Assembly (NCBI GenBank): GCA_036785375.1
Contig: JAWMAR010001053.1
Coordinates: 186,001 to 250,000 of the forward strand
Length of the DNA: 64,000 nucleotides
Source of the DNA: Leucoraja ocellata
Taxonomy: Eukaryota
Direction: 5' to 3'
Position 1 is the first letter of the stretch; each line of letters starts with the position of its first letter. The position numbers and the translations under genes were made by a program. The notes beneath the pieces are model-generated. The model did not search any database and was not told where the DNA came from. It saw only the letters and a program-made list of their open reading frames with translations. Positions 4,903-44,330 of the stretch are shown in pieces.

Positions 4903-5059
4903 ATTAACTTGTACAACTGTAACTTAACAAATTATTGCAGCTGTTCTTAAAATCCCTCCGATATTTTTTTACAAAAGGCAGATTCTCCCCTTACATTTTG
5001 ACTGTGGGAAAAAAGAGAAAAAGTTCAATTATTCGCGGACCAATTACCTTGTTGTATTT

Positions 5060-5296
5060 GTTCAAGAAGGAACTGCAGTTGCTGGAAAATCAAAGGTAGA
5101 AAAAAGTGTTGGAGAAACTCAGTGGGTGCAGCAACATCTATGGAGCGAAGGAAATAGGCAATGTTTCGGGTCGAAACCCTTCTTCAGGACTGAAGAAGGA
5201 TTTTGGCCTGAAACATTGCCTATTTCCTTCCCTGCCGTACTTTCCCTATTTCCATAGATGCTGCTGCACCCGCTGAGTTTCTCCAGCACTTTTGTC
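5060..5296. mobile_element. Palindromic Penelope-derived non-autonomous element with hammerhead-like cores
   Basis: Inverted arms centred on ttcttcag-ga-ctgaagaa. A CTGAAGA..GAAAC core is present on both strands. 15-bp direct repeat taccttgttgtattt at 5045-5059 and 5297-5311. Confidence 0.75.
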
Positions 5297-5377
5297 TACC
5301 TTGTTGTATTTATTGGGCCAAAGGGTAAATTATGTTGGAGCAACCTATTGAAAGCTATCATATGACCATGCATTTAT

Positions 5378-5830
5378 ACAGGGGCCTGGTGAGACCACAC
5401 CTGGAGTATGTGTGCAGTTTTGGTCTCAAAATTAGAGGAAGGACATTCGTACTATTGAGGGAGTGTAGCGTAGGTTCACAAGGTTAATTCCCGGGACGGC
5501 GCGACTGTCTATGCTGAGAGAATGGAGCGGCTGGGTGTGTAGACTCTGGAATTTAGAAGGATGAGAGGGGATCTTATTGAAACATAAAAGATTATTAAGG
5601 GTTTGGACATGCTAGAAGCAGGAAACATGTTCCCAATGTTGGGGGTCCAGAACCAGGGGCCACAGGGGTAAGCCATTCAGAGAAGAGGAAACACTTTTTC
5701 ACACTGAGAGTTGTGAGTCTGGAATTCTGTACCTCAGAGGGCAGTGGAGGCCAGTTCTCTGGAAACTTTCAAGAGAGAGCTAGATAGGGAAATTGATGAT
5801 AGCGGAGTCTGGGGATATGGAGAGATGGCA
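5378..5830 (+). mobile_element. CR1 ORF2 3' fragment (degenerate)
   Basis: Codes LVRPHLEY and EFRRMRGDLIET motifs, with frameshifts. Confidence 0.85.
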
Positions 5831-5832
5831 GA

Positions 5833-8362
5833 ATCTCAATTTGAGAAGGAGAAGGTTAAATCGGAAGTGTCAGTGATGCAGTTGAACAAAGGGGACTATG
5901 AAGGCATGAGAGGGAAGCTGGCCAAGGAAGACTGGAAAGGGATCCTAGCAGGAATGCCGGTGGATTAGCAATGACAGGAATTTCTGGGCATAATCCGGAA
6001 GACGCAGGATCATTTCATTCAAAAATGGAAGAAAGATTCTAAGGGGAGCAGGAGGCAACCGTGGCTGACAAGAGAAGTTAGGGATAGAATAAAACTAAAA
6101 GAAAAGATGTATAACACAGCAAAGAGTAGCGAGAAGCCAGAGGATTGGGAAACTTTCATAGGACAACAGAAGGAAACAAAACGGGTAATACGGGATGAAA
6201 AGATGAAGTACGAAGGGAAGCTGGCCAGGAATATAAAGAAGGACAGTAAAAGCTTCTTTAGATATGTTAAGGAAAAAGAGAAGCAAAGTCAAATGTGGGT
6301 CCCTTGAAGGCAGACACGGGTGAAATTATTATGGGTAACAAAGAAATGGCAGAAGAGTTATATAGGTACTTCGGATCTGTCTTCACTGAGGAAGACACAA
6401 ACAACCTCTCAGATGTACTGGAGGACAGTGGATCTAAGGGGGTGGAGGAACTGAAATAAATTTTCATTAGGCAAGAAATAGTATTGGGTAGGCTAATGGG
6501 ACTGAAGGATGATAAATTCCCTTGACCTGATGGTCTGCATCCCAGGGTCCTCAGGGAGGTGGCTCTAGAAATAGTGGATGCATTGGTGATCATTTTCCAA
6601 TGTTCAATAGATTCAGGATCAGTTCCTGTGGATTGGAGGATAACTAATGTTATCCCACTTTTCAAGAAAGGATCGAGCGAGAAAACAGGGAATTACAGAC
6701 CAGTTAGCCTGACTTCAGTTGTGGGAGAAATGCTGGAGTCAATTATTAAAGATGTAATAGTGGGCCATTTGGATAGCAGTAAAAGGATTAGTCCAAGTCA
6801 ACATGGATTTATGAAAGAGAAATCATGCTTGACTAATCTTCTGGAATTTTTTGAGGATGTGACAAGTAAAATGGATGAAGGGGAGCCAGTGGATGTAGTG
6901 TAGGAGTACAAACTCCTATATCACCAGGGACTAACTTTACTGTACCATTCTACAGCTTTTATTTAAAATTGATGTTATTAATTTCCCTTTTCCTTCTGCC
7001 CACAATATTAAATATGTAAAAGAATATGTGATTCTGTTCCATTCTGTTTGTAGTTTGTTTGGTTGTTTGTTTTTTTGCACAAAGTTTGCGAGCATGGCCA
7101 CTTTTCACTTCACTGCACATCTCGTATGTGTATGTGATGAATAAAATAAACTTGAACTTGTATCTAGACTTTCAGAAAGCCTTTGAAAAGGTCCCGCACG
7201 GGAGACTGGTGACTAAAATTAGAGCACATGGTATTGGGGGTAGGGTGTTGACATGGATAGAAAATTGGTTGGCAGACTGGAAGCAAAGAGTAGGAGTGAA
7301 CGGGTCTTTTTCAGAATGGCAGGCAGTGGCGAGTGGAGTGCTGCAAGGCTCGGTGTTGGGGCTGCAACTGTTTACCATATATATTAATGATTTGGAAGAG
7401 GGAAATAGGAGCAACACTAGCAAGTTTGTGGATGACACAAAGCTGGGTTGATGTGTGAACTGTGAAGAGGATGTTAGGAGGTTGCAGGGTGACCTGGACA
7501 GGTTGAGTGAGTGGGTAGATGCGTGGCAGATGCAGTACAATATAGATAAATGTGAGGTTATCCATTTTGGCGGCAAAAACAAGGGAGCAGATTATTATCT
7601 CAATGGGGTTAGGTTAGGTAAGAGGGAGGTGCAGCGAGACCTGGGCATCCTTGTACACCGGTCACTGAATGTTGGCTTACAGGTACAGCAGGCAGTGAGG
7701 AAAGCTAATGGAATGATGGCCTTCATAACAAGAGGATTTCAGTATTGGAGTAAAGAGGTTATTCTACAGTAGTATAGGGCTCTGGTGAGACCACATCTGG
7801 AGTATTGTGTATAGTTTTGGTCTCCTAATTTGAGAAAGAACATCCTTGTGATTGAGGCAGTGCAGCGTAGGTTCACGAGATTGATCCCTGGGGATGGTGG
7901 GACTGTCATATGAGGAGAGATTGAAAACACTAGGCTTGTATTCACTGGAGTTTAGAAGGATGAGGGGGAATCTTATAGAAACATATAACATTATAAAAGG
8001 ACTGTACAAGCTAGATGCAGGAAAAATGTTCCCAATGCGGGGCGAGTCTAGAACCAGGGATGACGGTCTTAGAATAAAGGGGAGGTCATTTAAGACTGAG
8101 GTGAGAAAAAACTTTTTCACTCAGAGAGTTGTGAATTTATGGAATTCCTTGCCACAGAGGGCAGTGGAGGCCAAGTCACTGGATGGATTTAAGAGAGAGT
8201 TAGATAGAGCTCTAGGGGCTAGTGGAGTCAAGGGCTATGGGGAGAAGGCAGGCACGGGTTATTGATAGGGGACGATCAGCCATGATCACAATGAATGGCG
8301 GTGCTGGCTCGAAGGGCCAAATGGCCTCCTCCTGCACCTATTTTCTATGTTTCGATGTTTCT
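5833..8362 (+). mobile_element. 5'-truncated CR1 LINE, ORF2 pseudogene, interrupted at 6901-7160
   Basis: ORFs 6559-6903, 7059-7451, 7455-7772 and 7894-8265 give [27 protein letters not shown] and FVDD motifs. Ends with a tttctatgttt tail; a short extra 3'-end copy follows at 8363-8450. Confidence 0.92.
6901..7160 (+). mobile_element. Short 3' fragment of a Rex1/Babar-type retroposon inserted in CR1
   Basis: Splits the CR1 codons VDVV|YLDF. Ends with a hairpin plus aataaaataaacttgaacttg. tgta is present at both junctions. Confidence 0.6.
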
Positions 8363-9560: not shown

Positions 9561-10022
9561 CAGAGAACATCAGAGACATTGATTTTATTACCACTTTCAA
9601 GACATGGGAGAATCCAACTGCAGTAACCATAGAGTGACTCCTATCTGTTTTCCACAGATAAAGATAATGCTAAAGATAGACACAAAAAGCTGAACAGACA
9701 GCATCTCTGGAGAAAAGCCAGAGGATTGGGTAACTTTTAAAGAGCAACAGAAGCTAACTAAAAAGGCAATACAGGGAGTAAGGATGAGGTACAAAGGTAA
9801 GCTAGCCAAAAATATAAAGGAGGATAGTAAAAGCTTATTTAAGTATGTGAAGAGGAAAAATTAGTTAAGACCAAAGTTATACCCTTGAAGATCAAAAAAG
9901 GTGAATTTATTATGGGAAACAAAGAAATGGCAGACAAGCTGAACAGGTACTTTGGATCTGTCTTCACTAAGGAAGACACAAACAATCTCCCTGATGAACT
10001 AGTGGTCAGAGGATCTAGGGTG

Positions 10023-10246: not shown

Positions 10247-10320
10247 CCTGCGCCTCCTGTTTGCCGGTTTTCTTTTAGTTTATACCCCAGTACCCTTATC
10301 CTGCTTCCTTCCCTCGTGCC

Positions 10321-12771
10321 ATGGCAAACTCGTGCCGCAAGCCCGACCCGCTTGTGTTTGATGGGGACATTGCCCATCGATGGGATGTCTTCCGACGTGA
10401 TTTTCAGCATTGTGTGACCATCGCCCACCCTGCTGCCACCGCTGAGACGCGTGCATCTCTGCTCCTCAACTTGGCCGGTCCCGACGCCCTGGAACGGTCC
10501 GAGTCGTTTGTGTATGCTGCTGGTGAGAGTGCCCTCGATCCGGTATGTCTCATTGCTAAGTTCACTGCCGTGTGTGATGTTCCCACCAACTCTATTTTGG
10601 AGCGGTTCAAAATGTTTGGCCGTCGGCAGAGCGCTGACGAGTCCGTCACTAACTACATCGCCGCGTTGAGGCACCTGGCTCGGCGCTGCCGCCTTGATGC
10701 CCTGACCCCCGAGCAGCTGACTCGTGATATCCTTGTATACGGCCTCCGCGATACCAAACTGAGAGCAGAACTTCTCAGAATGCCCGAACTTTCTCTGGAT
10801 GCGGCTCTACACGCTGCACTCATGGCTGAAGCTGTCGCCTCTACCCTGCCACCCGAGGACACTCATGTCGACTTAGCCTCTGCCACCGGCCGCCCAAGAA
10901 ACGTTGCCCCGCGGCGACAACAGGGTCCACCCTCACCCAGGTCCGGCGTCGCCCGCCGCTGCCCCAACTGCAACTTTGCTACCCATCAATTCAACGTGTG
11001 CCCTGCCCTGGGGAAGACCTGCAATTTCTGCAGAAAGCTAAATCATTTTTCTGCAGCCTGCCGAGCCCGCGGGAATCAAGCCCCCCCTTTTCGGAGAGTG
11101 CCGGTCAACCTTGCTCAGGCTGATAGTACTGTCTCAGAGCACCTGCCTGATGATCTCACCCTTTCTGATATCAGTTCCTCCGAAGGGGAGGCCAGCGTGT
11201 TTTCGCTTCTAGACTCTCATGCTTTGGTTGCTAACCCTTCTGTCCGTGTGACCGTTAATGGTACGACCTTCTCAGCTAAGTTGGACACAGGCGCTTTTGG
11301 AAATGTTATGTCAACAAGCCTGTTTCGCAAGATAAGGTCTGGTGAGAAAGTGTCTCCTGCTCACTCCCGCCTGCATGCATATGGGGGAGCTGTCCTCGTT
11401 CCTGTGGGAAAGACAACTCTGCACTGCAAGGTCCTGGAGGCCTCTCGGCCCCTCACTTTCTACCTGCTAGATTCCGACAACGTGACCCTGCTCGGCGCAC
11501 GAGCATGCCAGGACCTCGGTTTGGTCTCCTTTCATCACGACATCCATCAGGTGCAGACCCTCATGGACCCCCTACGTGAATACCCTGATCGCTTCGATGA
11601 CAGGCTGGGCAAGCTGCCCAGCTGCTACAAGATTGCTGTCGACTCCAGCATTGAGCCTGTGGTCCGCCCGCCACACCGCGTCTCCTTCGCCATGAAGGAC
11701 AAGGTGAAGTCTGCGTTACTGAACATGGTCTCCAAGGGCATCCTGAAAGAGGTGAGCGAGCCCACCCGGTGGGTCTCCACCATGGTGGTGGCGGCGAAGA
11801 AGGACAAATCTGAGATTCGCATTTGCATCAACCCCAAGGACCTGAACCTGGCAATCAAACGCCCGCACTACCCGATGCGCACAGTAGAGGACGTCGCTGC
11901 ACAGGTTGGCCTGGCCACTGTCTTTTCGGTCCTCGATGCCAAAAGCTCTTTCTGGCAGATACCGTTAGATGAACGTTCTTCCTACCTGACGACCTTCAGC
12001 ACACCGTTCGGAAGGTTTCGATTTCTGCGCATGCCATTCGGCATCAACTCTGCCAGTGAGGTGTTCCAGCGGACCATGGAGCAGCTGTTCGCCGGTCTGC
12101 CGTGTGCTATCATAGTTGACGACATCCTGGTCTATGGCAAGGACGTGGCTGAACACGACCTGAACCTCCGTAAAGTCCTAGATCGGGCCCGGGACATTAA
12201 TCTGAAACTTAACCCAAAGAAATGTCGATTCCGCGTTAAAGAAGTTACTTACGTGGGCCACGTCTTTACCGCCTCGGGGCTGAAGCCCGACCCGGAGAAA
12301 ACTGCTGCCGTCTCTGGAATGTCCCCTCCTACCGATGTGCCCGCTCTGCAGCGTTTCCTGGGCATGGTGAACTACCTGGGGAAGTTTATCCCCGACCTCA
12401 GCGAACTGAGTGCGCCCCTGAGGGAGCTCATCAAAAAGGACACTGCCTGGGCTTGGTTCCCGCAACACCAACGCGCCTTTGACGTCCTGAAGTCCCGACT
12501 GGTCAGTACCCCCACACTCAAGTTTTTTGACCTACAGCACCCCATTGTTCTCACCTGTGACGCTTCCAAGTTTGGCCTCGGCGCCGCTTGCATGCAGCTC
12601 CACGACGGTCAGCAGCTGCCCGTTTCCTATGCGTCCCGCACCATGACCCCTGCCGAGCAGCGCTATGCTCAAATTGAAAAAGAACTCCTTGCTGTGGTGT
12701 TTGCTTGCTCGAGGTCAAGGACTACATTCTGGGCAATACCTTCACGATTGAAACGGATCACCAGCCGCTAG
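10321..12771 (+). CDS. gag-pol: Gypsy Gag-Pol polyprotein, N-terminal part (Gag, zinc knuckles, protease, RT, RNase H start)
   Basis: 816-aa ORF with CPNC..H..C and CNFC....H....C knuckles, protease LDTGA, RT LDAKSSFWQ, RMPFG and IVDD, and RNase H TCDAS and YAQIEKELLA. Confidence 0.93.
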   Translation: MANSCRKPDPLVFDGDIAHRWDVFRRDFQHCVTIAHPAATAETRASLLLNLAGPDALERSESFVYAAGESALDPVCLIAKFTAVCDVPTNSILERFKMFGRRQSADESVTNYIAALRHLARRCRLDALTPEQLTRDILVYGLRDTKLRAELLRMPELSLDAALHAALMAEAVASTLPPEDTHVDLASATGRPRNVAPRRQQGPPSPRSGVARRCPNCNFATHQFNVCPALGKTCNFCRKLNHFSAACRARGNQAPPFRRVPVNLAQADSTVSEHLPDDLTLSDISSSEGEASVFSLLDSHALVANPSVRVTVNGTTFSAKLDTGAFGNVMSTSLFRKIRSGEKVSPAHSRLHAYGGAVLVPVGKTTLHCKVLEASRPLTFYLLDSDNVTLLGARACQDLGLVSFHHDIHQVQTLMDPLREYPDRFDDRLGKLPSCYKIAVDSSIEPVVRPPHRVSFAMKDKVKSALLNMVSKGILKEVSEPTRWVSTMVVAAKKDKSEIRICINPKDLNLAIKRPHYPMRTVEDVAAQVGLATVFSVLDAKSSFWQIPLDERSSYLTTFSTPFGRFRFLRMPFGINSASEVFQRTMEQLFAGLPCAIIVDDILVYGKDVAEHDLNLRKVLDRARDINLKLNPKKCRFRVKEVTYVGHVFTASGLKPDPEKTAAVSGMSPPTDVPALQRFLGMVNYLGKFIPDLSELSAPLRELIKKDTAWAWFPQHQRAFDVLKSRLVSTPTLKFFDLQHPIVLTCDASKFGLGAACMQLHDGQQLPVSYASRTMTPAEQRYAQIEKELLAVVFACSRSRTTFWAIPSRLKRITSR

Positions 12772-14411
12772 TAACCATTCTTAACAAGCCGATCCACGCT
12801 GCTTCCTCCAGGTTGCAGCGTATGATGTTGCAGCTGCAACGGTTTACTTTTACCATCGTTTACCGAAAAGGCAAAGACATGTTCGTTGCCGACACACTGT
12901 CCCGCGCCCCTCTGCCTTCCTCTGCCCGCCACCCCTACGAGTCGTCGGACCTAATGGTGCTTAATGTCAACTTTGTGCCTTCCAAGCAGATGCAGTCCCT
13001 CGTCTCCCACACTGCCAAGGATCCTACCCTGCAGCTACTGTCCGACATCATCATCCAGGGTTGGCCTGAACGCCGCTCCTCCTTGCCGGCCAGTGTAGTC
13101 CCATACTTCCTGGTCCGCGATGAGCTCGTCCTGCACGACGGCGTGGTGGTTAAGGGGCACAAGGTCGTAGTGCCCGAGTCACTGAGGGTTGCCTATTTTC
13201 AGTCTGCCCACAACGGTCATCCTGGGGCCGAGGCCACTCTGTCAAGCGCCCAGGGCCAGTTCTACTGGCCCAGCATGGCCAACGACATCCGGGAGTGGGT
13301 CTCTGCTTGCCCTTCTTGCAACAGCCTGGCCCCACATCAACAACGTCAGCCGCTGCTGCAACAACCTGCCCCTGATCTCCCCTGGACGGCGGTCGCTACT
13401 GACATTTTCGAGTGGCGTGGGAAACACTTCCTGGTCCTCGTCGACTCCTATTCCAACTGGTTTGAGGTCGACCAACTCCACTCCCTTTCCTCCTCGGCTG
13501 TCATCGGGAGGCTGCGTCGCCACTTTGCCACGTTTGGCTCCCCTGCTCGCCTCCAATCCGACAACGGCAGCCAGTTCACCAGTGCCGAGTTCCAGCGTTT
13601 CGCTTCTCAGTGGAACTTTAAACATTTTACCAGCAGCCCTGAGTACCCGCAAAGCAACGGCCTGGCGGAGCGTGCAGTCCGCAGTGCTAAGGGTTTGCTG
13701 GAGCACTGTCGGCTGTCCAAGTCGGACTTCCACCTGGCCCTGCTTAATCTCCGCAACATTTCCCGCGACCCTGCCCTGGGTTCGCCGGCACAACGACTGC
13801 TGTCTCGCAGAACTCGCCCCCCCCTCCCTGTTGCCCAGCAATCCCTTGTTCCCTCTGTTCTCCCCCCTGCTACTGTCCAGGAGCGTATCACCACCAAGCA
13901 TGACTCGCAGAAGCGCTCCCACGACCAGTCCTGCCGCCCCCTGCCGCCCCTGTTTCCCGGCCAGATCGTCCGGATGCAGACTGCCTCTGGCCACTACAAG
14001 CTCGCCACGGTGGTCGGTGATGCCGGCTCACCGCGGTCTTACTTGGTGGACCACGACGGGGTCATCTACCGCCGTTCCCGCCAGCATCTGCTGCTCGTTA
14101 ACGAGCCCCGACCTCCGCCTGCTGCCCCCTTCTCCCCTCCCTTGTCTGTTTCCGCTCCTGCCGTTCCGCAGATGCCCAGATCCCTCCCTTCGCCGTTGAT
14201 TAAGCCCCCGTCTCCGCCTCCCAGCCCTCGTTCTCCCTCTACCCCGCCGGCGGGTGGGTCTTCTCCTGCCTCTTCTCCCCCTGTATCCCCGGTTTGCTCG
14301 CCTGCCCCGGCCCCGGCTGCTCTTGTTCCTGCAGGGGGAGGAGGTGGCGAGCTTCGCACCTGGTCAGGCAGGCTGGTCAAGCCGCCTGTTCGCTACGGGG
14401 ATTTTGTTTAG
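12705..14411 (+). CDS. pol: Gypsy Pol, C-terminal part (RNase H end, integrase), separated from the upstream ORF by a 1-nt frameshift near 12712
   Basis: ETDHQPL and VADTLSR motifs, HHCC (HNGH...CPSC), DDE core (TDIF, SDNG, AERAV), Pro-rich tail ending RTWSGRLVKPPVRY. Confidence 0.93.
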   Translation: MLEVKDYILGNTFTIETDHQPLVTILNKPIHAASSRLQRMMLQLQRFTFTIVYRKGKDMFVADTLSRAPLPSSARHPYESSDLMVLNVNFVPSKQMQSLVSHTAKDPTLQLLSDIIIQGWPERRSSLPASVVPYFLVRDELVLHDGVVVKGHKVVVPESLRVAYFQSAHNGHPGAEATLSSAQGQFYWPSMANDIREWVSACPSCNSLAPHQQRQPLLQQPAPDLPWTAVATDIFEWRGKHFLVLVDSYSNWFEVDQLHSLSSSAVIGRLRRHFATFGSPARLQSDNGSQFTSAEFQRFASQWNFKHFTSSPEYPQSNGLAERAVRSAKGLLEHCRLSKSDFHLALLNLRNISRDPALGSPAQRLLSRRTRPPLPVAQQSLVPSVLPPATVQERITTKHDSQKRSHDQSCRPLPPLFPGQIVRMQTASGHYKLATVVGDAGSPRSYLVDHDGVIYRRSRQHLLLVNEPRPPPAAPFSPPLSVSAPAVPQMPRSLPSPLIKPPSPPPSPRSPSTPPAGGSSPASSPPVSPVCSPAPAPAALVPAGGGGGELRTWSGRLVKPPVRYGDFV

Positions 14412-16639: not shown

Positions 16640-18580
16640 ATGGCATGGTTTTCAAGGGAAATTGGACACTTGGTTCGGAAAAAGAGGGAGATCTACAATA
16701 ATTATAGGCAGCATGGAGTAAATGAGGTGCTTGAGGAGTATAAAGAATGTAAAAAGAATCTTAAGAAAGAAATTAGAAAAGCTAAAAGAAGATATGAGGT
16801 TGCTTTGGCAAGTAAGGTAAAAGTAAATCCGAAGGGTTTCTACCGCTATATTAATAGCAAAAGGATAACGAGGGATAAAATTGGTCCATTAGAGAGTCAG
16901 AGTGGACAACTATCTGCAGAGCCAAAAGAGATGGGGGAGATATTGAACAGTTTCTTTTCTTCGGTATTCACCAAGGAGAAGGATATTGAATTATGTGAGG
17001 TAAGGGAAACAAGTAGAGTAGCTATGGGAACTATGAGGATCAAAGAAGAGGAAGTACTGACACTTTTGAGAAATATAAAAGTGGATAAGTCCCCAGGTCC
17101 GGACAGGATATTCCCTAGGACATCGAGGGAAGTTAGTGTAGAAATAGCATGGGCTATGGCAGAAATATTTCAAATGTCATTAGAAACGGGAATAGTGCCG
17201 GAGGATTGGCGTACTGCGCATGTTGTTCCATTGTTTAAAAAGGGGTCTAAGAGTAAACCTAGCAATTATATATCTGTTAGTTTGACGTCAGTGATGGGCA
17301 AATTAATGGAAAGAATACTTAGAGATAATATATATAAGCATCTGGATAAACAGGGTCTGATTAGGAACAGTCAACATGGATTTGTGCCTGGAAGGTCATG
17401 TTTGACTAATCTTCGTGGATTTTTTGAAGATGTTACTCGGGAAATTGATGAGGGTAAAGCAGTGGATGTTGTGTATATGGACTTTAGTAAGGCCTTTGAC
17501 AAGGTTCCACATGGAAGGTTGGTTAAGAAGGTTCGATGGTTGGGTATTAATGGTGGAGTAGCAAGATGGATTCAACAGTGGCTGAATGGGAGATGCCAGA
17601 GAGTAATGGTGGATGGTTGTTTGTCAGGTTGGAGGCCAGTGACGAGTGGGGTGCCACAGGGATCTGTGTTGGGTCCACTGTTGTTTGTCATGTACATCAA
17701 TGATCTGGATGATGGTGTGGTAAATTGGATTAGTAAGTATGCAGATGATACTAAGGTAGGTGGGGTTGCGGGTAATGAAGTAGATTTTCAAAGTATACAG
17801 AGAGATTTATGCCAGTTGGAAGAGTGGGCTGAAAGATGGCAGATGGAGTTTAATGCTGATAAGTGTGAGGTGCTACATCTTGGCAGGACAAATCAAAATA
17901 GGATGTACATGGTAAATGGTAGGGAATTGAAGAATGTAGGTGAACAGAGGGATCTGGGAATAACTGTGCACAGTTCCCTGAAAGTGGAATCTCATGTAGA
18001 TAGGGTGGTAAAGAAAGCTTTTGGTGTGCTGGCCTTTATAAATCAGAGCATTGAGTATAGAAGTTGGGATGTAATGTTAAAATTGTACAAGGCATTGGTG
18101 AGGCCAATTCTGGAGTATGGTGTACAATTTTGGTCGCCTAATTATAGGAAGGATGTCAACAAAATAGAGAGAGTACAGAGGAGATTTACTAGAATGTTGC
18201 TTGGGTTTCAGCAACTAAGTTACAGAGAAAGGTTGAACAAGTTAGGGCTTTATTCTCTGGAGCGCAGAAGGTTAAGGGGGGACTTGATAGTGGTTTTTAA
18301 AATGATGAGAGGGATAGACAGAGTTGATGTGGAAAAGCTTTTCCCACTGAGAGTAGGGAAGATTCAAACAAGGGGACATGACATGAGAATTAAGGGACTG
18401 AAGTTTAGGGGTAACATGAGGGGGAACTTCTTTACTCAGAGAGTGGTAGCTGTGTGGAATGAGCTTCCAGTGAAGGTGGTGGAGGCAGGTTCGTTTTTAT
18501 CATTTAAAAATAAATTGGATAGTTATATGGATGGGAAGGGAATGGAGGGTTATGGTCTGAGCGCAGGTATATGGGACTAG
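16640..18580 (+). CDS. CR1 ORF2, uninterrupted RT-containing portion (endonuclease domain missing)
   Basis: 646-aa ORF with KSPGPD, QHGF, YMDFSKAFDKVPH, GVPQGSVLGP and YADD. Confidence 0.85.
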   Translation: MAWFSREIGHLVRKKREIYNNYRQHGVNEVLEEYKECKKNLKKEIRKAKRRYEVALASKVKVNPKGFYRYINSKRITRDKIGPLESQSGQLSAEPKEMGEILNSFFSSVFTKEKDIELCEVRETSRVAMGTMRIKEEEVLTLLRNIKVDKSPGPDRIFPRTSREVSVEIAWAMAEIFQMSLETGIVPEDWRTAHVVPLFKKGSKSKPSNYISVSLTSVMGKLMERILRDNIYKHLDKQGLIRNSQHGFVPGRSCLTNLRGFFEDVTREIDEGKAVDVVYMDFSKAFDKVPHGRLVKKVRWLGINGGVARWIQQWLNGRCQRVMVDGCLSGWRPVTSGVPQGSVLGPLLFVMYINDLDDGVVNWISKYADDTKVGGVAGNEVDFQSIQRDLCQLEEWAERWQMEFNADKCEVLHLGRTNQNRMYMVNGRELKNVGEQRDLGITVHSSLKVESHVDRVVKKAFGVLAFINQSIEYRSWDVMLKLYKALVRPILEYGVQFWSPNYRKDVNKIERVQRRFTRMLLGFQQLSYRERLNKLGLYSLERRRLRGDLIVVFKMMRGIDRVDVEKLFPLRVGKIQTRGHDMRIKGLKFRGNMRGNFFTQRVVAVWNELPVKVVEAGSFLSFKNKLDSYMDGKGMEGYGLSAGIWD

Positions 18581-21236: not shown

Positions 21237-21491
21237 AAATTGAAATAGCAGGAACCAAAACTGCTGATCTTTAGGTCACATCACTCAAGTGGAAACATAA
21301 TAAAAAATATCCCACTGTGAATCTAATTTTGTAACTGTCACGTCACATTGTATTACTGTAAGAAGAAAGGAAATGTTCATGTAACCTCTTCATAGACCCC
21401 ATTGACTTTACAAATGCACCAAATGTAATATACTTCAAACCATTTCAGACGTAATTTGAATTCCTTAACAAGAAAGCTGACATTCCAATAG

Positions 21492-21671
21492 ATCTCTGGA
21501 GAGAAGAAATGGGTGGCGTTTCGTGTCGAGACCCTTCTTCAGACTGAAGAAGGGTCTCAACACGAAATGCTACCCATTTCTTCTCTCCAGACATGCTGCC
21601 TGTCCCGCTGAATTACTCCAGCATTTTGTATTTATCTTCAGTGTAAACTAGCATCTGCAGTTTCTTCCTAC
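21492..21671. mobile_element. Palindromic Penelope-derived element with hammerhead-like cores
   Basis: Centre cccttcttcagactgaagaaggg. Imperfect direct repeat acattccaatag / acattcgtatag at 21480-21491 and 21672-21683. Confidence 0.75.
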
Positions 21672-21979
21672 ACATTCGTATAGTTAAGTTTGATTGTACA
21701 TATTCTTAATTCATCAGAATATGTTTATCTCCTTCTAATGTATCCAAGTGAACTCTATACATTAAAAACATAAAACTACAATGATTTCTGGAACTGTAAA
21801 TGTTGAATATTATTCTCTCAAGGTTATTAACTTCTCCCAGACCACATTACGTGGTCAGATTATAGTTATTAACAAAATATTGCTTCTGTACAGTCAATGT
21901 TATATTATCCTACTCAAATTAGAATCTATTTGGTTTACATTTACTAGAGTGAATGCCATCAGATCCACCAAATATGTTG

Positions 21980-22078
21980 AAGAAATGTCTGAAGAAGGGT
22001 ATCGACCTGAAACATCTCCTATTCCTTCCCTCCAGAGCTGCTGCCTGTCCCACTGAGTTACTCCAGCATTTTATGTCC
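21980..22078 (+). mobile_element. Single-arm Penelope-derived element with hammerhead-like core
   Basis: ctgaagaagggtatcgacctgaaacatc. 17-bp TSD atccaccaaatatgttg at 21963-21979 and 22079-22095. Confidence 0.75.
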
Positions 22079-26749: not shown

Positions 26750-28410
26750 CGTAACTCAGCAGGACAGGTAGTACCTCCGGATAGAAGGAATGGGTGACAA
26801 TTCGGGTTACATAGAAACATAGAAACATAGAAATTAGGTGCAGGAATAGGCCATTCAGCCCTTCGAGCCTGCACCGCCATTCAATATGATCATGGCTGAT
26901 CATCCAACTCAGTATCCCGTACCTGCCTTCTCTCCATACCCTCTGATCCCCTTAGCCACAAGGGCCACATCTAACTCCTTCTTAAATATAGCCAATGAAC
27001 TGGCCTCAACTACCCTCTGCGGCAGAGAGTTCCAGAGATTCACCACTCTGTGTGAAAAAAGTTCTTCTCATCTCGGTTTTAAACGATTTCCCCTTAACCT
27101 TAAGCTGTGACCCCTTGTCCTGGACTTCCCCAACATTGGGAGCAATCTTCCTGCATCTAGCCTGTCCAACCCCTTAAGAATTTTGTAAGTTTCTATAAGA
27201 TCCCCTCTCAATCTCCTAAATTCTAGAGAGTATAAACTAAGTCTATCCAGTCTTTCTTCATAAGACAGTCCTGACATCCCAGGAATCAGTCTGGTGAACC
27301 TTCTCTGCACTCCCTCTATGGCAATAATGTCCTTCCTCAGAATTGGAGACCAAAACTGTACGCAATACTCCAGGTGTGGTCTCACCAAGACCCTGTACAA
27401 CTGCAGTAGAACCTCCCTGCCCCTATACTCAAATCCTTTTGCTATGAAAGCTAACATACCATTCGCTTTCTTCACTGCCTGCTGCACCTGCATGCCTACT
27501 TTCAATGACTGGTGTACCATGACACCCAGGTCTCGCTGCATCTCCCCTTTTCCTAGTCGGCCACCATTTAGATAATAGTCTGTTTTCCTGTTTTTGCCAC
27601 CAAAATGGATAACCTCACATTTTTCCACATTATACTGCATCTACCAAACATTTGCCCACTCACCCAGCCTATCCAAGTCACCTTGCAGTCTCCTAGCATC
27701 CTCCTCACAGCTAAGTTGAGACCCTTCTTCTGACTGAGCATCAGGGGAGAGGGAGTTACAGAAATAAAGAAGTGTAAGAGTTCAAAAGAGATGAATATCA
27801 AGGAAAATGTAGAATAGACCATTGTTAGCTATGAGAAGTTGACAACAAAGCAAACAGAGATAAAATGTAATCAGGGGGACAGTTTGACTGGTCGAAGAAC
27901 TGGGAAGGGGGAAGGATGGAGAGAGAGGGAGAGCGGGGTTACTTGAAGTTAGATGTCAATATTCACACAGCTGGGGTGTAAGCTGCCCAAGTGAAATATG
28001 AGGTGCTGTTCCTCCAATTTGTGCTGGGACTCAATCTGACAGTGGAGGAGGCTCAGGACAGCACACCGCTGGGATGTAAGCTGCCCAAGCAAAATATGAG
28101 GCTCGTCGATCGATTTGCTGAATACCTCCGCTCAGTTCACCTAAACCTACCAGATCATCTGGTTGCTAAACACATTATCTCCCCATCCCATTCCCATCCT
28201 GACCTTTCTGTCCTGGGTCTCTTCCTAGCTAACAATGGTCTATTCTACATTTTCCTTGAACTTCATCTCTTTTGATCTCTTACACTTCCTTTCCTCTGTA
28301 AATCCTCTCCCCCAGTCTGGAAAACGGTCTCGACACTAAATGTCACCCATTCCTTCTAACCAGAGATACTGCCTGTCCTGTTGAGTTATTCCAGCATTTT
28401 GAGTCTATCT
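26750..28410. mobile_element. Penelope-like element 3' remnant with internal inversion (GIY-YIG C-terminus plus pLTR arms)
   Basis: Plus strand RLVDRFAEYLRSVHLNLPDHLVAKHIISPSHSHPDLSVLGL; minus strand LEEQHLIFHLGSLHPS. Hammerhead-bearing arms at both ends. A further short minus-strand fragment lies at about 28420-28580. Confidence 0.75.
26808..27713 (-). mobile_element. Young CR1 3' fragment inserted in the Penelope hammerhead motif
   Basis: ORF 27068-27640 and a (catagaaa)n tail. The flanks ttcgggtt and gagacccttc rejoin to the pLTR motif. Confidence 0.92.
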
Positions 28411-29537
28411 GTGGTCTATTGTTTGCTGGGGACAAGGTGATAACGAAGGAATATAAATGGTGAAATTAGCAAGAGGACGAGGGTGGGGGAGGGACAGGGA
28501 GAGAGGGAATGCAAGGGTTACTTGATGTTAGAGAAATCAATATGTATGCCACTGGGTTGTAAGTTGTTGCCCAAGCAAACTCTTTTTAGTTCTTATGTAT
28601 AAATTCTAATTACAAATCTTTTATGTGGTAACTTATCAAATGCCTTCTGGAAGCACATATATACCACGTCAATTGCAATTTCCTTATCAACCCTCTGTTA
28701 TGGTTTCAAAAAACCTCATTCAAATTAGTTAAATACTACTTAATTTTACAAATAATTGATGCCCTTCTCCAATTAATCTGCACTTGTATGACCTATTGCA
28801 AATTTTCTCCCTGATTATTATTGCTAGAACTTTCCCATACTACGGAGATAACTGGGTTTACGCATCACACTCTTTGGAACAATAGTGCAATTTTAGCAAT
28901 TTTCCAGTCCTCAGAATCAAATTGCATTATTTATCCTAACTAGGATATGTGACCCAAAATCCAGCTTTACAGATGTGCCTCATGTGCTTGGTCAATGTTG
29001 TTGTCAGCTACTTAACCTCAGCCTAATGTGGCTTCCTAGTTACTGCTCATGCTGCTGATTTTTCAGTCAATTCACATTTTTCCACACATATCTATACCTG
29101 TAGAATGCTAAGTTTTTATACCTAAGTAGTGAACATTCATCTCTTATTCTATTATGCTCAGGAGCATGTAAAGCAGGCACAGGGATTTGTCTGCACTGTG
29201 GATTTTCCAACAGTGCTGGCATTCCTAGACATTACACTAGTCCTAATTGAGATGGCCTTGGAGAATTTCCTGCCACGGTTGCCTGGCTGAGGGCCTTTGA
29301 GGCAAATTTGCAGGGAAAAAACAAGTCTCCTGCAGGTACTTGCCTATCCCACTTAATCCTTAGAAGCAATCGCCATGCCTTCCTATCACTGCAGCATCTT
29401 CTAGTGCAAGAATGTTGTTCTAATTACAATAAGCCCTCTTAAGATCTTGGTGCAATGATTGCACCTATAATGCAGCTAAGAACTGCAAAATGTGCAGCAC
29501 TTCAATAGGAAATGTCACACTGAAATATCTATCTCAG

Positions 29538-29880
29538 AAGAGGACATAAAGTGCTGGAGTAACTCAGCGGGACAGGCAGCATCTCTGGATAGAAGGACTG
29601 GGTGAAGTTTCGGGTCGAGAACCTTCTTCAGTCATTCTTCAGGTTAATTGGCATGGTATAAGATTAAATCGTCCCTAGTATGTGTAGGATAGTGTTAATG
29701 TGCGGGGATCACTGGTCAGTGTGGACTCGGTGTGCCAAAGGGCCTGTTTCCGCGCTGTATCTCTAAAACATAAGAAGGGTCTCGACCTGAAATGTCACTC
29801 ATTCCTTCTAACCAGAGACGCTGACTGTCCCGCTGAGTTACTCCAGCTTTTTGTGTCTATCTGCAGTTCTTTGTATCTAC
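29538..29880. mobile_element. Palindromic Penelope-derived element with an HE1 SINE fragment (about 29640-29770) at its centre
   Basis: Inverted arms. TSD tatctatctcag / tatccatctcag at 29526-29537 and 29881-29892. Confidence 0.72.
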
Positions 29881-30254
29881 TATCCATCTCAGTGCTGATT
29901 TACACAGAGAAGCCCAATGACATTGTTCCATGAGCATTGTTTTAAACAAACACAGTTAGTGATCACTACAGTTGGTGATCTCTGAACCTCAATAGAAGTT
30001 TTTGCTCTTCATGCAACTTTCACAAAATGTATTAGGCTGTTTACACAACAATGTTTTGATTTTTTTTTTAATGACAAGGACTAATTTCCAGCTTGCGGGC
30101 AAATGCACACTGAATGTTATTGAGACAAATTATTTATCTTGGAAGTATACAGTATACCATGAGTTATTCTGTGGGAAATATATTATTTACTACTAATAAA
30201 GATTTGATGAAAATGTTATATTAGGCTGGATTATGTTGGATTGGGCTAATATAT

Positions 30255-33261: not shown

Positions 33262-34411
33262 ACATAGAAACATAGAAACATAGAAACATAGAAATTAGGT
33301 GCAGGAGTAGGCCATTCGGCCCTTCGAGCCTGCACCGCCATTTAATATGATCATGGCTGATCATCCAACTCAGTATCCCGTACCTGCCTTTTCTCCATAC
33401 CCTCTGATCCCCTTGGCCACAAGGGCCACATCTAACTCCCTCTTAAATATAGCCAATGAACTGGCCTCAACTACCCTCTGTGGCAGAGAGTTCCAGAGAT
33501 TCACCACTCTCTGTGTGAAAAAAGTTCTCCTCATCTCGGTTTTAAAGGATTTCCCCCTTATCCTTAAGCTGTGACCCCTTGTCCTGGACTTCCCCAACAT
33601 CGGAAACAATCTTCCTGCATCTAGCCTGTCCAACCCCTTAAGAATTTTGTAAGTTTCTATAAGATCCCCTCTCAATCTCCTAAACTCTAGAGAGTATAAA
33701 CCAAGTCTATCCAGTCTTTCTTCATAAGACAGTCCTGACATCCCAGGAATCAGTCTGGTGAACCTTCTCTGCACTCCCTCTATGGCAATAATATCCTTCC
33801 TCAGATTTGGAGACCAAAACTGCACGCAATACTCCAGGTGTGGTCTCACCAAGACCCTATACAACTGCAGCAGAACCTCCCTGCTCCTATACTCAAATCC
33901 TCTTGCTATGAAAGCCAACATGCCATTTGCTTTCTTTACTGCCTGCTGCACCTGCATGCCTACCTTCAATGACTGGTGTACCATGACACCCAGGTCTCGC
34001 TGCATCTCCCCCTTTCCCAATCGGCCACCGTTTAGATAATAATCTGCTTTCCCGTTTTTGCCACCAAAATGGATAACCTCACATTTATCCACATTAAACT
34101 GCATCTGCCAAACATTTGCCCACTCACCCAGCCTATCCAAGTCACCTTGCAGTCTCCTAGCATCCTCCTCACACCTAACACTGCCCCCCAGCTTAGTGTC
34201 ATCCGCAAACTTGGAGATATTGCCTTCAATTCCCTCATCCAGATCATTAATATATATTGTAAATAGCTGGGGTCCCAGTACTGAGCCTTGCGGTACCCCA
34301 CTAGTCACTGCCTGCCATTGTGAAAAGGACCCGTTTACTCCTACTCTTTGCTTCCTGTTTGCCAGCCAGTTCTCTATCCACATCAATACTGAACCCCCAA
34401 TGCCATGTGCA
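33262..34411 (-). mobile_element. Young 5'-truncated CR1 with uninterrupted ORF2 C-terminal half
   Basis: 338-aa ORF 33370-34386 with GVPQGSVLGP and FADD, and a (catagaaa)n tail. Confidence 0.95.
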
Positions 34412-35164
34412 TTGTGAATACAAGCTATTCTTTCAAGACATTATTGCAGACCCTGATGCTTGAGATATGTTGGCCAGAGACATGACTGCTGCGAAAAATG
34501 TCTTAATACAGTTTTGCTGAAGGAGCATGTGACCCAAGGTTTTGAATGAGGTAGAACAAGCCATAAAACCCACCAGTGAAGTGAATGGCGATATTGGCAG
34601 TGAGGAATGGTGTTGTTAAGTGATCGATGTGGAAGGCTGGGGTCTTGGGAAGGGATTGCAAGAGGGATTTGCAGGGGAAAGAAAACATGCGGGCAGGATG
34701 ATTTTCAGGATGCAGGAGAGAGTGCTGAGAAAATACACAGATATTCCCTTCTTTCCCCCTCTGGCTGGAATGCCTGGATTTAAAAGGGGTAGGCTGATGA
34801 GGATCATGTAGCCCAATTCAATATCTGCTAATTGGACCAATTTGTTACTTATTTGGTTGTGGACTCAGCTCAATGGTGCTGCGGTTTGGCCTCTCCTACC
34901 CTGCTTGCTGGTGATGGGGATCTGAGCAGCATCCGAGGTAGGGGGCGCTGTCACACCATGTTCTAGTTTCGTATCTAGATTTTATGCCATATTTGATGTC
35001 CAAATTTTCAGATTTAGTGCCTGAAATGTTTATATCAGGCCACTAAATGATTAAAATAATTTCCCAGTATAATTAAATCCAGGATAAAAATAAGGAACCA
35101 CAACAAAATTGGAAAAAGGTTTCTTAATATTATTATTTGAAGATCATATACCAAAAATACAATA

Positions 35165-35502: not shown

Positions 35503-35866
35503 TAACTCAGTGATTGCAAGGTTGAAGAGATTGGCTCCCACTTCAGGAGATAAAAGTATTGCCAGGCTAATTATACTATTAGTATACGATAGATTAAAGA
35601 AACATCTACCTGGTCATTCTATGTAGAGTTAATACTTCAAAAGGCAGTAGTACTGTTGTCACAACAGTTCTATCTCTAATTTATAGAAACTTTTCTTTAG
35701 TGCTTCCTCAGTTATTTTTCTTCTCATATATCTGTATTTGTAATGTAACAGCAGTGACACATATGATAGTATCATTTAAAGGAGCAATTATTCAATCTGA
35801 AGAATTTAATTTCAGTTTTCTAAATTTACTTGATGACCATCATTAATATAAATAAAGTAGTTTGCT

Positions 35867-35957
35867 ACTGAAGAAGGGTCTCAACCCGAAACGTAATCTA
35901 TCCATGTTTTCCAGAGATGCTGCCTGTCCCGCTGAGTTACCTTAGCACCTTTTACCC
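35867..35957 (+). mobile_element. Single-arm Penelope-derived element with hammerhead-like core
   Basis: ctgaagaagggtctcaacccgaaacgta. TSD tagtttgct at 35858-35866 and 35958-35966. Confidence 0.75.
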
Positions 35958-36019
35958 TAGTTTGCTTTCATATTGATTACCTTTGTGCTCTGCATCTCTA
36001 ATCTCTCAATGTTGATCTC

Positions 36020-38850: not shown

Positions 38851-39264
38851 AATGATCAATCCGGGTGATCAATCTTTGCTTCACAATGAAGGGATATACT
38901 CAGTATGCTAATGGTCTCTAGAAATTTTAGCCACATCTCCAGCACTACATCCTATTTGACATTTGAATTTACATAATTAAAGTTGCATGCGCAAGTGTAC
39001 TTTGACAGCTATCATCATATTCAACTGCTTCTTCTAAGTCTCTGCAAATGAAACACAATATTGGGGTTGTGCAACAATAACTTCAAGAACTTACATACCC
39101 ATCTCAGATTGTTTTTATCTAAACAGTGGCTTTTGGATGCCAGACACCTCTTAAACATAAACAACAAGACATGAAAATTTGCCACTCCATATCTTACAGT
39201 GTCATGTTCGCTCATGTACGATCTTCCTTATATTTGCAGCCATTCACAACTTACTGACTACTGG

Positions 39265-39442
39265 AGATAGACACAAAATGCTGGAGTAACTCAGCTGGAC
39301 TGGCAGTATCTCTGTCTGAAGAAGGGTCTCGACCCAAAATGCTACCCTTTCTTTCTATCCAGAGATGCTGCCTGTCCCATTGAGTCACTCCAGCATTTTG
39401 TGTCTATCTTTGGTTTAAACCAGCATCTGCAGTTCCTTCCTC
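39265..39442. mobile_element. Penelope-derived element, partial inverted arm plus hammerhead arm
   Basis: ctgaagaagggtctcgaccc. 18-bp TSD caact(t/c)actgactactgg at 39247-39264 and 39443-39460. Confidence 0.75.
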
Positions 39443-39949
39443 CAACTCACTGACTACTGGTTCTGCCTAAGGTAATAGACTCATTGTAGTGTTACTGTGT
39501 GTTAGTGTTGGATTCCTGAGCAAAGACTGCCTCTGCAGTAAGTTAACATATTAAACCTTTGAACTGTCTTTGGGGGTTCAGTGAGATTGTTAATCTTAAA
39601 GTCAGGGTAGCCCAACAATTGCAAGATGGTGCCAGCAGCACTGATTGCTTTCTGAATCAGATTCTGAGAAGTAACTCGGGTGATTCTGTTTGTCATTGAC
39701 ACAGTTGGGCACAACATCTGAGAGCCAATACCAGGTCCCACCCATTGTGAAACATGCCTCTCTAAACTGGCCCCTTGTCTCTTGGTGCCCCTATCTGAGC
39801 TGGTGCTCTCCTAGGAGAGGCACACTTCAACAATAGGTGCTCTTCCCTTGTAAAAACTGGTGTAGCCATCTCCTCTTCTTTTCAGATGACTGTAGATCCT
39901 TTGTGGCACCAGGCTGTGTGGAGTGCCAATGTATAGCAAAGGAAAACAA

Positions 39950-40309: not shown

Positions 40310-41100
40310 TAATGTTTCCTGTCCATGTACTGTCCAAATGTCTTTTAAATGTCACTACACTGACTGCCTCAATTTCCTCCTCTGGCAGCTCTTTCCATAT
40401 ATCCACCAACCTCTGCATAAAAAAGTAGCATCTCTAACTTTGATTTAATCTTTCCCCTCTCACTTTAATTCTATGTATTGGCTCTTTATTCCCCCACTCT
40501 GGGTAAAAAAAAACCTGTACATTTACCCCATCTATTCCCCTCATGATTTGATCCACCTCTATCGGATCACCCCTCATCCTCCTGCACTCCAAGGAATAAA
40601 GTTCTAGCCTACCCAACCTATGGCTCAGGCCCTCGTCCTGGCAACTTCCTTCTGAATCTCTTGTGTACATTTTCAAAACTTAACAACATCTTCCATAGAC
40701 ATAGAAACATAGAAAATAGGTGCAGGAGTAGGCCATTCGGCCCGTAGAGCATGCACCACCATTCAATGTGATCATGGCTGATCATCCTAAATCAGTACCC
40801 ATTCCTGCCTTCTCCCCATATCCCTTGATTCCGTTAGCGCTAAGAGCTGTATCTAACCATCCCTTGAAAACAAGTATAGCAGGGTGATCAGAACTACTCC
40901 AAATGCAGCCTCACCCTGTGCCTTGTACAGCTGCAATATAACATTCCAACTTCTATACTCAATAACCTGACTGAAAGCAAATGTGCCAAAGGCCTTCTTG
41001 ACCTATCTACCTTTGATTCCACTTTTGATTAACTATGTTGCTGCACTCCTAAATCCCTCTGCTCTATAACAGTCCCTGGAGCTCTGCCATTCACTATCAT
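40310..41100 (-). mobile_element. Older CR1 fragment with a younger CR1 tail inserted at about 40695-40870
   Basis: ORF 40434-40676 reads LYSLECRRMRGD. An internal (catagaaa)n-tailed piece is present. Confidence 0.75.
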
Positions 41101-42419: not shown

Positions 42420-43060
42420 GTCATTGTACCAATGGCCCTGAGGGGGGGGGGGGGGGAGTGGTCCAAGAGGAGGGGATCCGTTTGGAGACGGGAAAAGGCA
42501 TCATCAATGGGGGCGAGGACTCCTTCCCATGAAATAACGGTGTGAGGCGGGAGCGACAGAAGAAGAGCTCCAAATTGTGGTGGCCGCGAAACTCATTGAG
42601 GTGGGGATGGAGGGGGACAAAGGTGAGGCCTCTGCTGAGGCCAGACCGTTCGGGATCTGAGAGGGGGAGATCAGGGGGGATGGTGAACACACGGCAGGGA
42701 TAGGGGTTGGGGCCAGAGGCAGGTGAGTAGACTGAGGCCAAGGCGGTGTCTGGTGGATGGGTGGTGGGTGTTCAGGGGGTAGGGGGGTATTAGAACTGTA
42801 GTGTGGGTGGGGAGGATCTGTGGGTCACATGGTTTGAGGGGAATGGGGAAGACCCATTGGAACAGCCACTGAGATTACCAGGGTTGGGGGGGTGGAGGCT
42901 AGCACTTGAAGCCAGCGGTCAAACCCAGGGGAGTTGGAGTCTGCAGCATGGAAGCAATGGGTCCGGTGAGGTAGCGAGGTGAGTAGGCCCCCCTAGATCT
43001 CGAGGTCCTAAGCATAAGCTTGTCTAGCTTACACATAAATCTGGCCCCGGATGAGATGCC
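42420..43060 (-). mobile_element. Penelope-like element ORF fragment (region upstream of RT)
   Basis: ORF 42421-42741 reads VFTIPPDLPLSDPERSGLSRGLTFVPLHPHLNEF, matching the LS.GL.F.P motif that precedes Penelope RT. Confidence 0.65.
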
Positions 43061-43404
43061 AGCCATCAATAATATTTTTGGGTCAAAATGTCTTTATTAT
43101 CAGACAAATTATTAGAATTGATTTAAGCATGCATATTACTTCATGGTACTATTTGAAAAATTAAACGGTAAACGATAAGATTTGTGTAAGACCAAGACAT
43201 TTATATCAATTATTTTCCATTGTTAATCTTGACTCCATTTTGTAGAAGGCAAAATATCCATAATTTAAACACGGAATGGGTATTTTTGATTATATTCCAT
43301 TGTGCAAATGAGCAAACCAATTGAACAGGACATAAATTGGTAGCCCAAAAGCAAAAACGAAAAGCTGGAAGGCAGCAACTCAGAAATCATGTGATATGTA
43401 GATT

Positions 43405-44010
43405 TTGACCATTCGGCCCATCAAGTCTACTCCAGCATTCAATCATGGCTGATCTATCTCTCCCTCCTAATCCCATTCTCCTGTCTTCTCCCCATAACCC
43501 CTGGCTCCTGTACTAATCAAGAATCTATCTATCTCTGCCTTAAAAATAGCCATTGACTTGACCTCCACAGCTTTCTGTGGCAAATAAACTTTGTTGGAAA
43601 TATTTAGCAGCATATGTGCAGAGAAAAATATGAGTCACGTTAGAACGTAGAACAGTACAGCACAGGAACAGCCCTTCAGCCTACAATGTCCATGCCCAAC
43701 ACGATGCCAAGTTAAACTAGTCACATCTTTTTGCATAAGATCCATATCCTTATATTCCCTGCAAATCCATGTGCCTATCCAAAAGCCTTGTAAATGCCAC
43801 TATCATATCTGTCTCCACCATCATTCCTGGCAACATCTTCCAGGCACCGACCATACCCTGTAAAACCTGCCCTGTATATTTCCTTTCAACTTTGCACCTG
43901 ATGCTCTGCCTTCTAGTTTTTTTTTCACATTTCCACCACCCAAAACAATTCTGACTGTCTACCTGATCTATGCCTCTCATAATTTTATATATGTCTAACA
44001 AATCTCCTCT
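43405..44010 (-). mobile_element. Two adjacent CR1 3' fragments (about 43405-43590 and 43640-44010)
   Basis: CR1 3' UTRs; ORF 43750-44055 reads RGDLLDIYKIMRGID. Confidence 0.75.
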
Positions 44011-44174
44011 TGGGCCCCATTGATGAACTTTGGTAAACTTAATTTTTTTTTTCAACTTATTTTGCTTATTTTAGTCATTTAAGTTATTTATTTTTGTTCT
44101 ATTTTTTTTAATTATTTCAGTAATCTTAGTAGTTCTGTCATGGATATGTAAATAGGCTCTTAAACTATTTTATG

Positions 44175-44330
44175 TGAAGGAACTGCAGATGCTGGTTTAT
44201 ACCGAAAATAGACATAAAGTGCTGGAGTAACTCAGCGGGTCAGGCAGCAACTCTGGAGAAAAAGGATGGTGACATTTCAGGTCGGAACGTCTGAAGAAGG
44301 GTTCCGACCTGAAACGTCACCAATCCTTGT
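44175..44330. mobile_element. Penelope-derived palindromic element with well-preserved hammerhead core
   Basis: ctgaagaagggttccgacctgaaacgtc at 44291-44318, with an inverted arm upstream. Confidence 0.75.

Follow-up and report, generated by a model that had tools for sequence, protein, structure and literature searches.

The 64,000-nucleotide stretch of Leucoraja ocellata DNA analyzed here (assembly GCA_036785375.1, contig JAWMAR010001053.1, positions 186,001 to 250,000; hereafter the window) contains a dispersed family of very small repeats built around a minimal hammerhead ribozyme motif. Sequence comparison makes it probable that these units are extremely 5′-truncated insertions of the tip of the pseudo-long terminal repeat (pLTR) of Neptune-type Penelope-like elements (PLEs), and that the hairpins among them were likely built anew at each insertion, by priming of both target ends on one RNA. 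The units share identity with an intact pLTR and have two fixed 3′ ends, target-site duplications (TSDs) of 9–19 bp, a tail on one arm only and variable junctions. By “arm” we mean the repeated segment, the last 95–135 nt of the PLE, which occurs as a tailed form (L) and a short untailed form (S); arm positions are counted from the first C of CTGAAGA (+1).

A first-pass annotation of the window had reported at least seven such units. All seven lie where it placed them, and a profile search brings the number of arms in the window to 17, above the number listed. Five of the seven (5060, 21492, 29538, 39265 and 44175) are head-to-head inverted pairs of arms, an arrangement absent from that annotation. 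The units and related remnants, in window coordinates, are:

5060–5296: head-to-head pair, subfamily B-like; L arm on the minus strand (5060–5187), S arm on the plus strand (5190–5296); 15-bp TSD at 5045–5059 and 5297–5311.
9668–9738, minus strand: decayed arm fragment (profile search).
21492–21671: head-to-head pair; clipped arm on the minus strand (21492–21546), tailed arm on the plus strand from 21540; marginal repeat at 21480–21491 and 21672–21683.
21980–22078, plus strand: solo S-ended arm, core at 21989; 17-bp TSD at 21963–21979 and 22079–22095.
26747–28418: longer inverted PLE insertion with arm, 3′ untranslated region and endonuclease (EN) end; minus strand 26747–26808 and 27715–28061, plus strand 28098–28418; interrupted by a long interspersed nuclear element (LINE) at about 26809–27714.
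29538–29880: head-to-head pair; arms at 29541–29633 (minus) and 29772–29869 (plus), separated by other repeat DNA (about 138 nt); TSD at 29526–29537 and 29881–29892.
35867–35957, plus strand: solo S-ended arm; core at 35868 intact, helix I partner absent; 9-bp TSD at 35858–35866 and 35958–35966.
39265–39442: head-to-head pair; 50-nt S arm on the minus strand, tailed arm on the plus strand (core at 39316, G12 lost); TSD at 39247–39264 and 39443–39460.
42462–42950, minus strand: PLE N-terminal coding remnant, with 72% amino-acid identity over 74 residues at 42475–42696.
44172–44329: head-to-head pair; tailed arm on the minus strand (44172–44288), 3′-clipped arm on the plus strand (44289–44329); no TSD found.
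44291–44318, plus strand: best-preserved hammerhead core of the window; G10.1–C11.1 now G–U; predicted cut after 44318; predicted to pair with the antisense arm.
50724–50766, minus strand: decayed arm fragment (profile search).
58252–58341, plus strand: 5′-clipped tailed arm without hammerhead (profile search).

Direct repeats had been claimed for six units; they are good in five (5060, 15/15; 21980, 17/17; 35867, 9/9; 39265, 17/18; 29538, 11/12), marginal at 21492 (10/12) and missing at 44175. The solo units at 21980 and 35867 do begin close to CTGAAGA, 9 nt and 1 nt before it, respectively, and the 5060 unit is nearer to a second subfamily whose helix II reads GGGT-TTCG-GCCC. The PLE remnants proposed earlier were borne out as well, as EN-coding pieces in both orientations (27951–28269) and as the N-terminal piece at 42462–42950. 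The roughly 138 nt between the arms of the 29538 unit (29634–29771), which we take to resemble the 3′ part of a shark short interspersed nuclear element (SINE), were either captured at insertion or inserted later.

A search with the window remnant, which returned many long frames, led to an intact parent, a tandem with a 3,946-bp period (loci L091–L092, contig C8 at about 5.606–5.617 Mb). This near-identical array is a mark of very recent activity. Its frame of 1,233 codons encodes a reverse transcriptase (RT) and a GIY-YIG domain, with a long proline-rich stretch ahead of the RT, and the arm begins 119 nt past the stop codon. The protein carries the RT motifs DKG, YTSI, GVAMG and YIDD, a C-x4-C-xx-C linker at residue 1100 and, at its C terminus, a GIY-YIG domain with a CCHH motif and two internal cysteines; Pfam returned only RVT_1 on the parent copy, and GIY-YIG was assigned from motifs and from PF01541 on homologues. 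The nearest named protein relatives are those of sharks and rays (Chiloscyllium, Rhincodon, Mobula and Hypanus). The linker agrees with the CX2-5CxxC definition of Neptune/Nematis given in the accessible text of PMC8557442, and by this definition, rather than by a tree, the sequence places the element in the Neptune/Nematis type; Neptune is preferred because the host is a vertebrate. Penelope/Poseidon, defined without a Zn-finger linker, was rejected. The earlier suggestion of mobilization by a Penelope RT/GIY-YIG protein thus stands as to the enzyme, while the partner is of the Neptune/Nematis type. The further traits of EN-bearing (EN+) PLEs are present: a single RT and GIY-YIG open reading frame (ORF) linked to the arm, a partial-tandem pLTR, an inverted 5′-truncated copy, a 30–40-bp tail and variable TSDs. 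Of the arms that keep an intact start, 394 across all loci examined, 81 have the ORF end 37–241 nt upstream.

Abundance was estimated from an unselected sample of 799.4 kb, taken at round-number coordinates at 80 places on contigs C1–C1000. The arm profile found 370 arms there, against none in reversed sequence, which extrapolates to about 1.6 million arms in 3.44 Gb. Genome-wide, one exact 30-mer has 16,420 matches (none for the reversed pattern), and a hammerhead core descriptor has at least 112,500 exact matches (control, none). Short arms far outnumber long copies, as would be expected under an explanation that we consider unlikely, namely that they form an independent non-autonomous family, SINE- or retrozyme-like, with units of 100–250 nt, its own promoter, hammerhead processing and mobilization in trans. 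Clustering of 316 arms gave eight groups, five of which include ORF-end copies and two more probable ones; these seven all mix solos and pairs, and no young solo-only lineage was present among the eight. The first-pass annotation had offered two readings, of which heavily truncated pLTR insertions survives and an independent ribozyme-built retroposon family does not, as the young arm subfamilies all occur on ORF-bearing copies too.

The 3′ ends of arms are bimodal, lying in young copies at +93 to +96 (S) and +130 to +134 (L), and the gap between the two corresponds to a tail of 36–38 nt that matches the known 30–40-bp PLE tail. Among 77 cases of adjacent arms no more than 30 nt apart, 69 were head-to-head, 4 tail-to-tail and only 4 tandem, the last being a poor fit to an independent retrozyme-like family. 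The 66 unselected close pairs comprised 47 L+S, 3 L+L, 1 S+S and 15 unscorable cases, such that exactly one arm carries the tail in 47 of 51 scorable pairs (P = 1e-10 versus independence). Young long inverted copies scored by eye were likewise L+S, in 4 of 4 scorable cases in one set and 9 of 9 clearly scorable cases in another. TSDs of at least 9 bp flank 25 of 70 pairs, compared with 1 of 205 mismatched flanks, and range from 9 to 19 bp. The 47 L+S pairs have 46 distinct junctions, which also speaks against a family propagating as finished units. That short, palindromic and very abundant hairpins might be miniature inverted-repeat transposable elements (MITEs), DNA transposons with long terminal inverted repeats, is extremely improbable: the TSDs are variable and 9–19 bp long, not 2-bp TA, the ends are asymmetric, a fixed centre is absent, and the units are continuous with an RT-coding element.

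A one-tailed hairpin is also what would be expected if the first complementary DNA (cDNA) of a PLE stump folded back at the TCAG/CTGA palindrome and the endonuclease resolved the product at the S site, following models in the accessible text of PMC3846280 and PMC8557442. There is indeed a short palindrome at the core edge, and several pairs join there. Against this, the S arm extends at least 10 nt further 5′ than the L arm in 18 of 47 pairs (the L arm extends further in 10), so that the untailed arm holds 5′ sequence lacking in the tailed arm, which excludes either arm as a DNA copy of its partner. Of the solo arms, moreover, 92 end at S and 87 at L, a nearly even split. The two arms of a pair share non-consensus letters in 129 of 344 cases, against 20% across pairs. 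On these counts we regard fold-back as quite unlikely; they favor two RNA-templated cDNAs, one per target end.

Small tandem insertions elsewhere in the genome bear on the same question. Young arms running on into the ORF numbered only 143, and from the first 100 of these matches listed we surveyed 73 loci (L263–L343). Thirty-six are small young insertions in which a downstream point (+201 to +586) is joined to a point at −266 to +21, the same joint being repeated one to four times within each. These mini-arrays end at S in 24 cases and at L in 11, and 28 of the 36 have an exact 9–17-bp TSD, one of low complexity. Nearly every locus has its own joint, with downstream points clustering at +241 and +266 and upstream points at a few positions. 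A retrozyme-like head-to-tail layout with hammerhead is present in 33 of 36, while two lack the core. None of the 36 joints lies at the hammerhead cut site, although full-length RNA circles closed without a seam would escape notice. Back-splicing as a source of the joints was rejected, with GT/AG at none of the 36. Three loci (L289, L323 and L337) have one private internal joint that recurs in each of their two inverted arms; L323 and L337 fit fold-back, whereas L289 fits neither order, as folding back of either arm could not have produced it. A single RNA molecule may thus have served as template for the two arms and been copied more than once around, for which a covalent circle and end-to-end jumps fit alike. 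By hand count, 4 of 15 multi-round arrays (L263, L272, L286 and L312) end no more than 20 nt from the site at which they were primed, so that their length is close to a whole number of units, as would be expected of a rolling copy meeting its own start. At L268, a solo arm stands beside a mini-array with the same target-site repeat, which suggests two insertions at one site.

The course of events that we favor would begin with a staggered cut of the target by the RT/GIY-YIG protein. One target end would be primed at the S site and the other at the L site of the same RNA, two cDNAs would be made without ribozyme cleavage, and these would be joined at their 3′ ends through short homology; solo arms may have arisen where only one target end was primed. 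The accessible text of PMC11167929 describes a comparable arrangement in an anole PLE, where two adjacent RT start sites bound the tail, both strands are extended, a dimer is predicted and cleavage is unneeded. More tentatively, and at less than even odds, a PLE dimer would prime both ends on one RNA, one protomer per site, and could run repeatedly round small RNA circles or jump from end to end on one fragment, so that joints would be unrelated to the ribozyme and retrozyme-like arrays, with or without hammerhead, could be born in a single insertion, of which this genome may hold about a million records.

Several observations weigh against twin priming. Twenty-nine of the 47 L+S pairs, together with L323 and L337, are also compatible with fold-back. 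Pairs 60–1,200 nt apart, some of them chance neighbors, obey the tail rule less closely, with 14 L+S, 8 S+S, 2 L+L and 5 unscorable cases. Many pairs lack a TSD, and a near TSD was seen in only 23 of 170 solos (control, 1 of 170), so that old copies are poorly resolved. One small old cluster (five arms) contains solos only, and one joint is common to two loci (L312 and L332), such that some derivatives may move by themselves. The start site is reported to be alike on both strands in vitro (accessible text of PMC11167929), and the stopping of short copies at the core edge, treated below, adds a further difficulty. Capture of host flank upstream of solos was considered and dismissed: 180 arms gave nine distant TSD matches, most of which enclose PLE body and none clearly host DNA.

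The motif is, as first identified, the minimal type I hammerhead of PLEs; the subfamily consensuses contain the core CUGANGA/GAAA/UH, an A left unpaired, a helix II of 4 bp with G10.1–C11.1 as its closing pair, a palindromic ACGU in helix III and GUC or GUU at the cut. The shared motif of the first-pass annotation holds as this consensus: of 10 window copies examined, 5 keep the core, and in none do the core, G10.1–C11.1, a palindromic helix III and the two pairs of helix I occur at once. The cut position given for the 44291 copy, after 44318, agrees with ours. Helix I has only 2 bp (U–A or U–G, plus G–C) in every subfamily seen, and changes across arm clusters fall at N7, loop II, the U–A/U–G pair, H17 and CpG sites. 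Between subfamilies, helix II shows only a one-sided U–A/U–G change, and RNAalifold favors another fold (covariation term −0.58). In all seven contexts folded, intact parents included, the predicted pairing probability of helix II was at most 0.08; intact parents are also predicted to prefer other folds, and the long hairpin predicted for paired units would bury the motif (z −7.5). Predicted thermodynamics thus gives a stand-alone active fold no support, and an Rfam scan gave no hammerhead match in the window or the intact pLTR, only chance microRNA and small nucleolar RNA matches.

The first reading had also counted an extra A before helix II as a doubt about activity. It is no argument against activity, because a nucleotide between 9 and 10.1 is conserved in PLE minimal hammerheads according to the accessible text of PMC4209133, which also describes the activity of such motifs as low, even as dimers. 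What speaks against activity is instead that helix I has only 2 bp, that CpG sites have decayed and that the antisense arm would pair with the motif. Cleavage, moreover, does not set insertion ends. Only 2 of 370 arms begin at the base after the predicted cut (few for a hammerhead-processed family), long copies read through this site, and no read pile-up was seen there in three raw RNA runs; cleavage-defined 5′ ends are ruled out by arm starts, TSD-verified solo starts and mini-array joints. In the 81 ORF-end copies, spacers vary widely while the CAGT-plus-core stretch is nearly constant, a contrast that gives the strongest indication that the motif is under selection in the parents. We read the hammerhead as a passenger that selection maintains in autonomous parents and that is mostly decayed or predicted masked in window copies. 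The substrate in PMC11167929 is, in the accessible text, uncleaved RNA, and the ribozyme requires protein. At about +49 to +116, all subfamilies have a predicted 8-bp helix around the S site with a small inner hairpin, without covariation; the helix is a candidate protein-binding or priming structure.

The 5′ edge of short copies is not explained by the two-site model. Of 23 TSD-verified solos, 21 begin within 11 nt of CAGT. Counted as exact matches to the 27-nt core plus upstream bases, G(−2) is missing from 5,662 copies and present in at least 45,602, and 7,120 lack C(−4), starting at AGT, against 32,828 with it, 1,885 of those with a purine at −5. Copies are thus lost at each base upstream of the core, and RNA reads have loose ends at −3 and −2. 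The starts of short copies accumulate at the edge of the core, where none of 20 resolved long read-through copies stops (by eye). The preferred cause, to which we give somewhat less than an even chance, is that the RT halts where it meets the border of a protein-bound RNA domain; a weaker candidate is an RNA 5′ end at TCAGT, which we take to resemble an initiator. Such an initiator, the tight 5′ edge of solos and the AGT-start copies would all suit an independent family with its own promoter. AGT as the autonomous mRNA start is weakened by the long copies, none of which stops there. Cap-derived extra G is not indicated, the preceding base being G in 31, A in 41 and T in 28 of the first 100 AGT-start copies listed (hand count), near background. 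An intron (suggested by a polypyrimidine tract and CAG ahead of the core, the arrangement of Drosophila virilis) is made less likely by the genomic copies: the spacer is present in all 81 ORF-end copies, and several subfamilies are without the donor GT. Six long copies (L299, L308, L311, L335, L339 and L342) have 5′ ends at +80 to +89, near S, which partly reflects search-pattern bias.

In the three raw RNA runs, which may be from another species, the arm is covered about 1,200–5,600-fold per orientation and the ORF mostly less than 20-fold. Abundant arm RNA would be expected of an independent transcribed family, yet the reads come from both strands, 82–95% of them continue into unrelated sequence, and no pile-up of starts or ends was seen in these runs. 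The pattern fits passenger transcription of scattered copies.

Other features of the window include a Gypsy-type LTR retroelement at 10279–14411, with long gag-pol frames over two frames (Pfam protease, RT, RNase H and integrase). Many LINE pieces, presumably CR1-type, are present (16640–18580, 26809–27714, 33263–34440, 53872–54880 and others); one has a 646-codon frame and one splits the long inverted PLE insertion. The RT frame of another LINE family lies on the minus strand at 56991–58214 (Pfam RVT_1), and a 35-bp tandem repeat and assembly gaps (200 N in the window) occupy 50264–50685 and about 61000–61270.

The element type is already known, and what is added here is a quantified end rule together with the mini-array joints. 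A literature search turned up no paper with a count for the tail rule or with joints of this kind, although most subscription journals and Repbase were not covered. The counts separate twin priming from fold-back and show ends not set by cleavage. The accessible text of PMC8557442 calls undefined how PLEs make tandem or inverted insertions with a one-sided tail, and inverted pLTRs of this kind were previously explained by self-priming or endonuclease resolution (PMC3846280 and PMC8557442, accessible text). Like the EN+ PLE insertions in these sources, ours show partial tandems, an adjacent inverted 5′-truncated copy, a 30–40-bp tail at one end and a linker of the Neptune/Nematis type; unlike those described there, most are reduced to the last 95–135 nt, and the sample is such that the tail rule and non-nesting can be counted. 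For annotation, the roughly 1.6 million extrapolated arms belong under PLE ends rather than MITEs, microRNA precursors or active ribozymes.

With the PLE minimal hammerheads of Cervera and De la Pena 2014 (PMC4209133), as far as its accessible text goes, the motif shares the core CUGANGA/GAAA/UH, the unpaired nucleotide 9/10.1, G10.1–C11.1, palindromic 15.2–16.2, location in the pLTR and many dispersed single copies, some on opposite strands. Helix I is 4–5 bp in the schistosome families of that report and 2 bp here, as in D. virilis, and helix II here has 4 bp with a 4-nt loop. Copy number also differs, with at least 112,500 core-intact copies here against thousands reported in coelacanth and Xenopus. 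The role of the PLE hammerhead is left open in the accessible text of both PMC4209133 and PMC11167929, the former proposing circular templates via ribozyme cleavage. As in the Poseidon PAc of Anolis (PMC11167929, accessible text), two internal start sites bound the tail downstream of the hammerhead and the template is uncleaved RNA; the skate element belongs to another clade, its first Met is placed some 165 nt past the core and not in stem II, and its genomic pairs suggest one site per target end, unlike PAc in vitro. For in vitro work, the genome offers a Neptune-type element of a vertebrate that is young and intact and whose start sites are sharply mapped. Metazoan non-LTR retrozymes are, in the accessible text of PMC7229834 and bioRxiv 10.64898/2026.07.22.740005, likewise PLE-derived, hammerhead-bearing and non-coding, and the latter derives vertebrate retrozymes from pLTRs and attributes their expansion to unequal crossover. 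The mini-arrays of this genome share the retrozyme layout and size (200–700-nt units). Unlike retrozymes, the window units are solo or head-to-head and none is tandem, and in the mini-arrays almost every locus has a joint of its own and no joint falls at the cut site, with two arrays lacking the core altogether.

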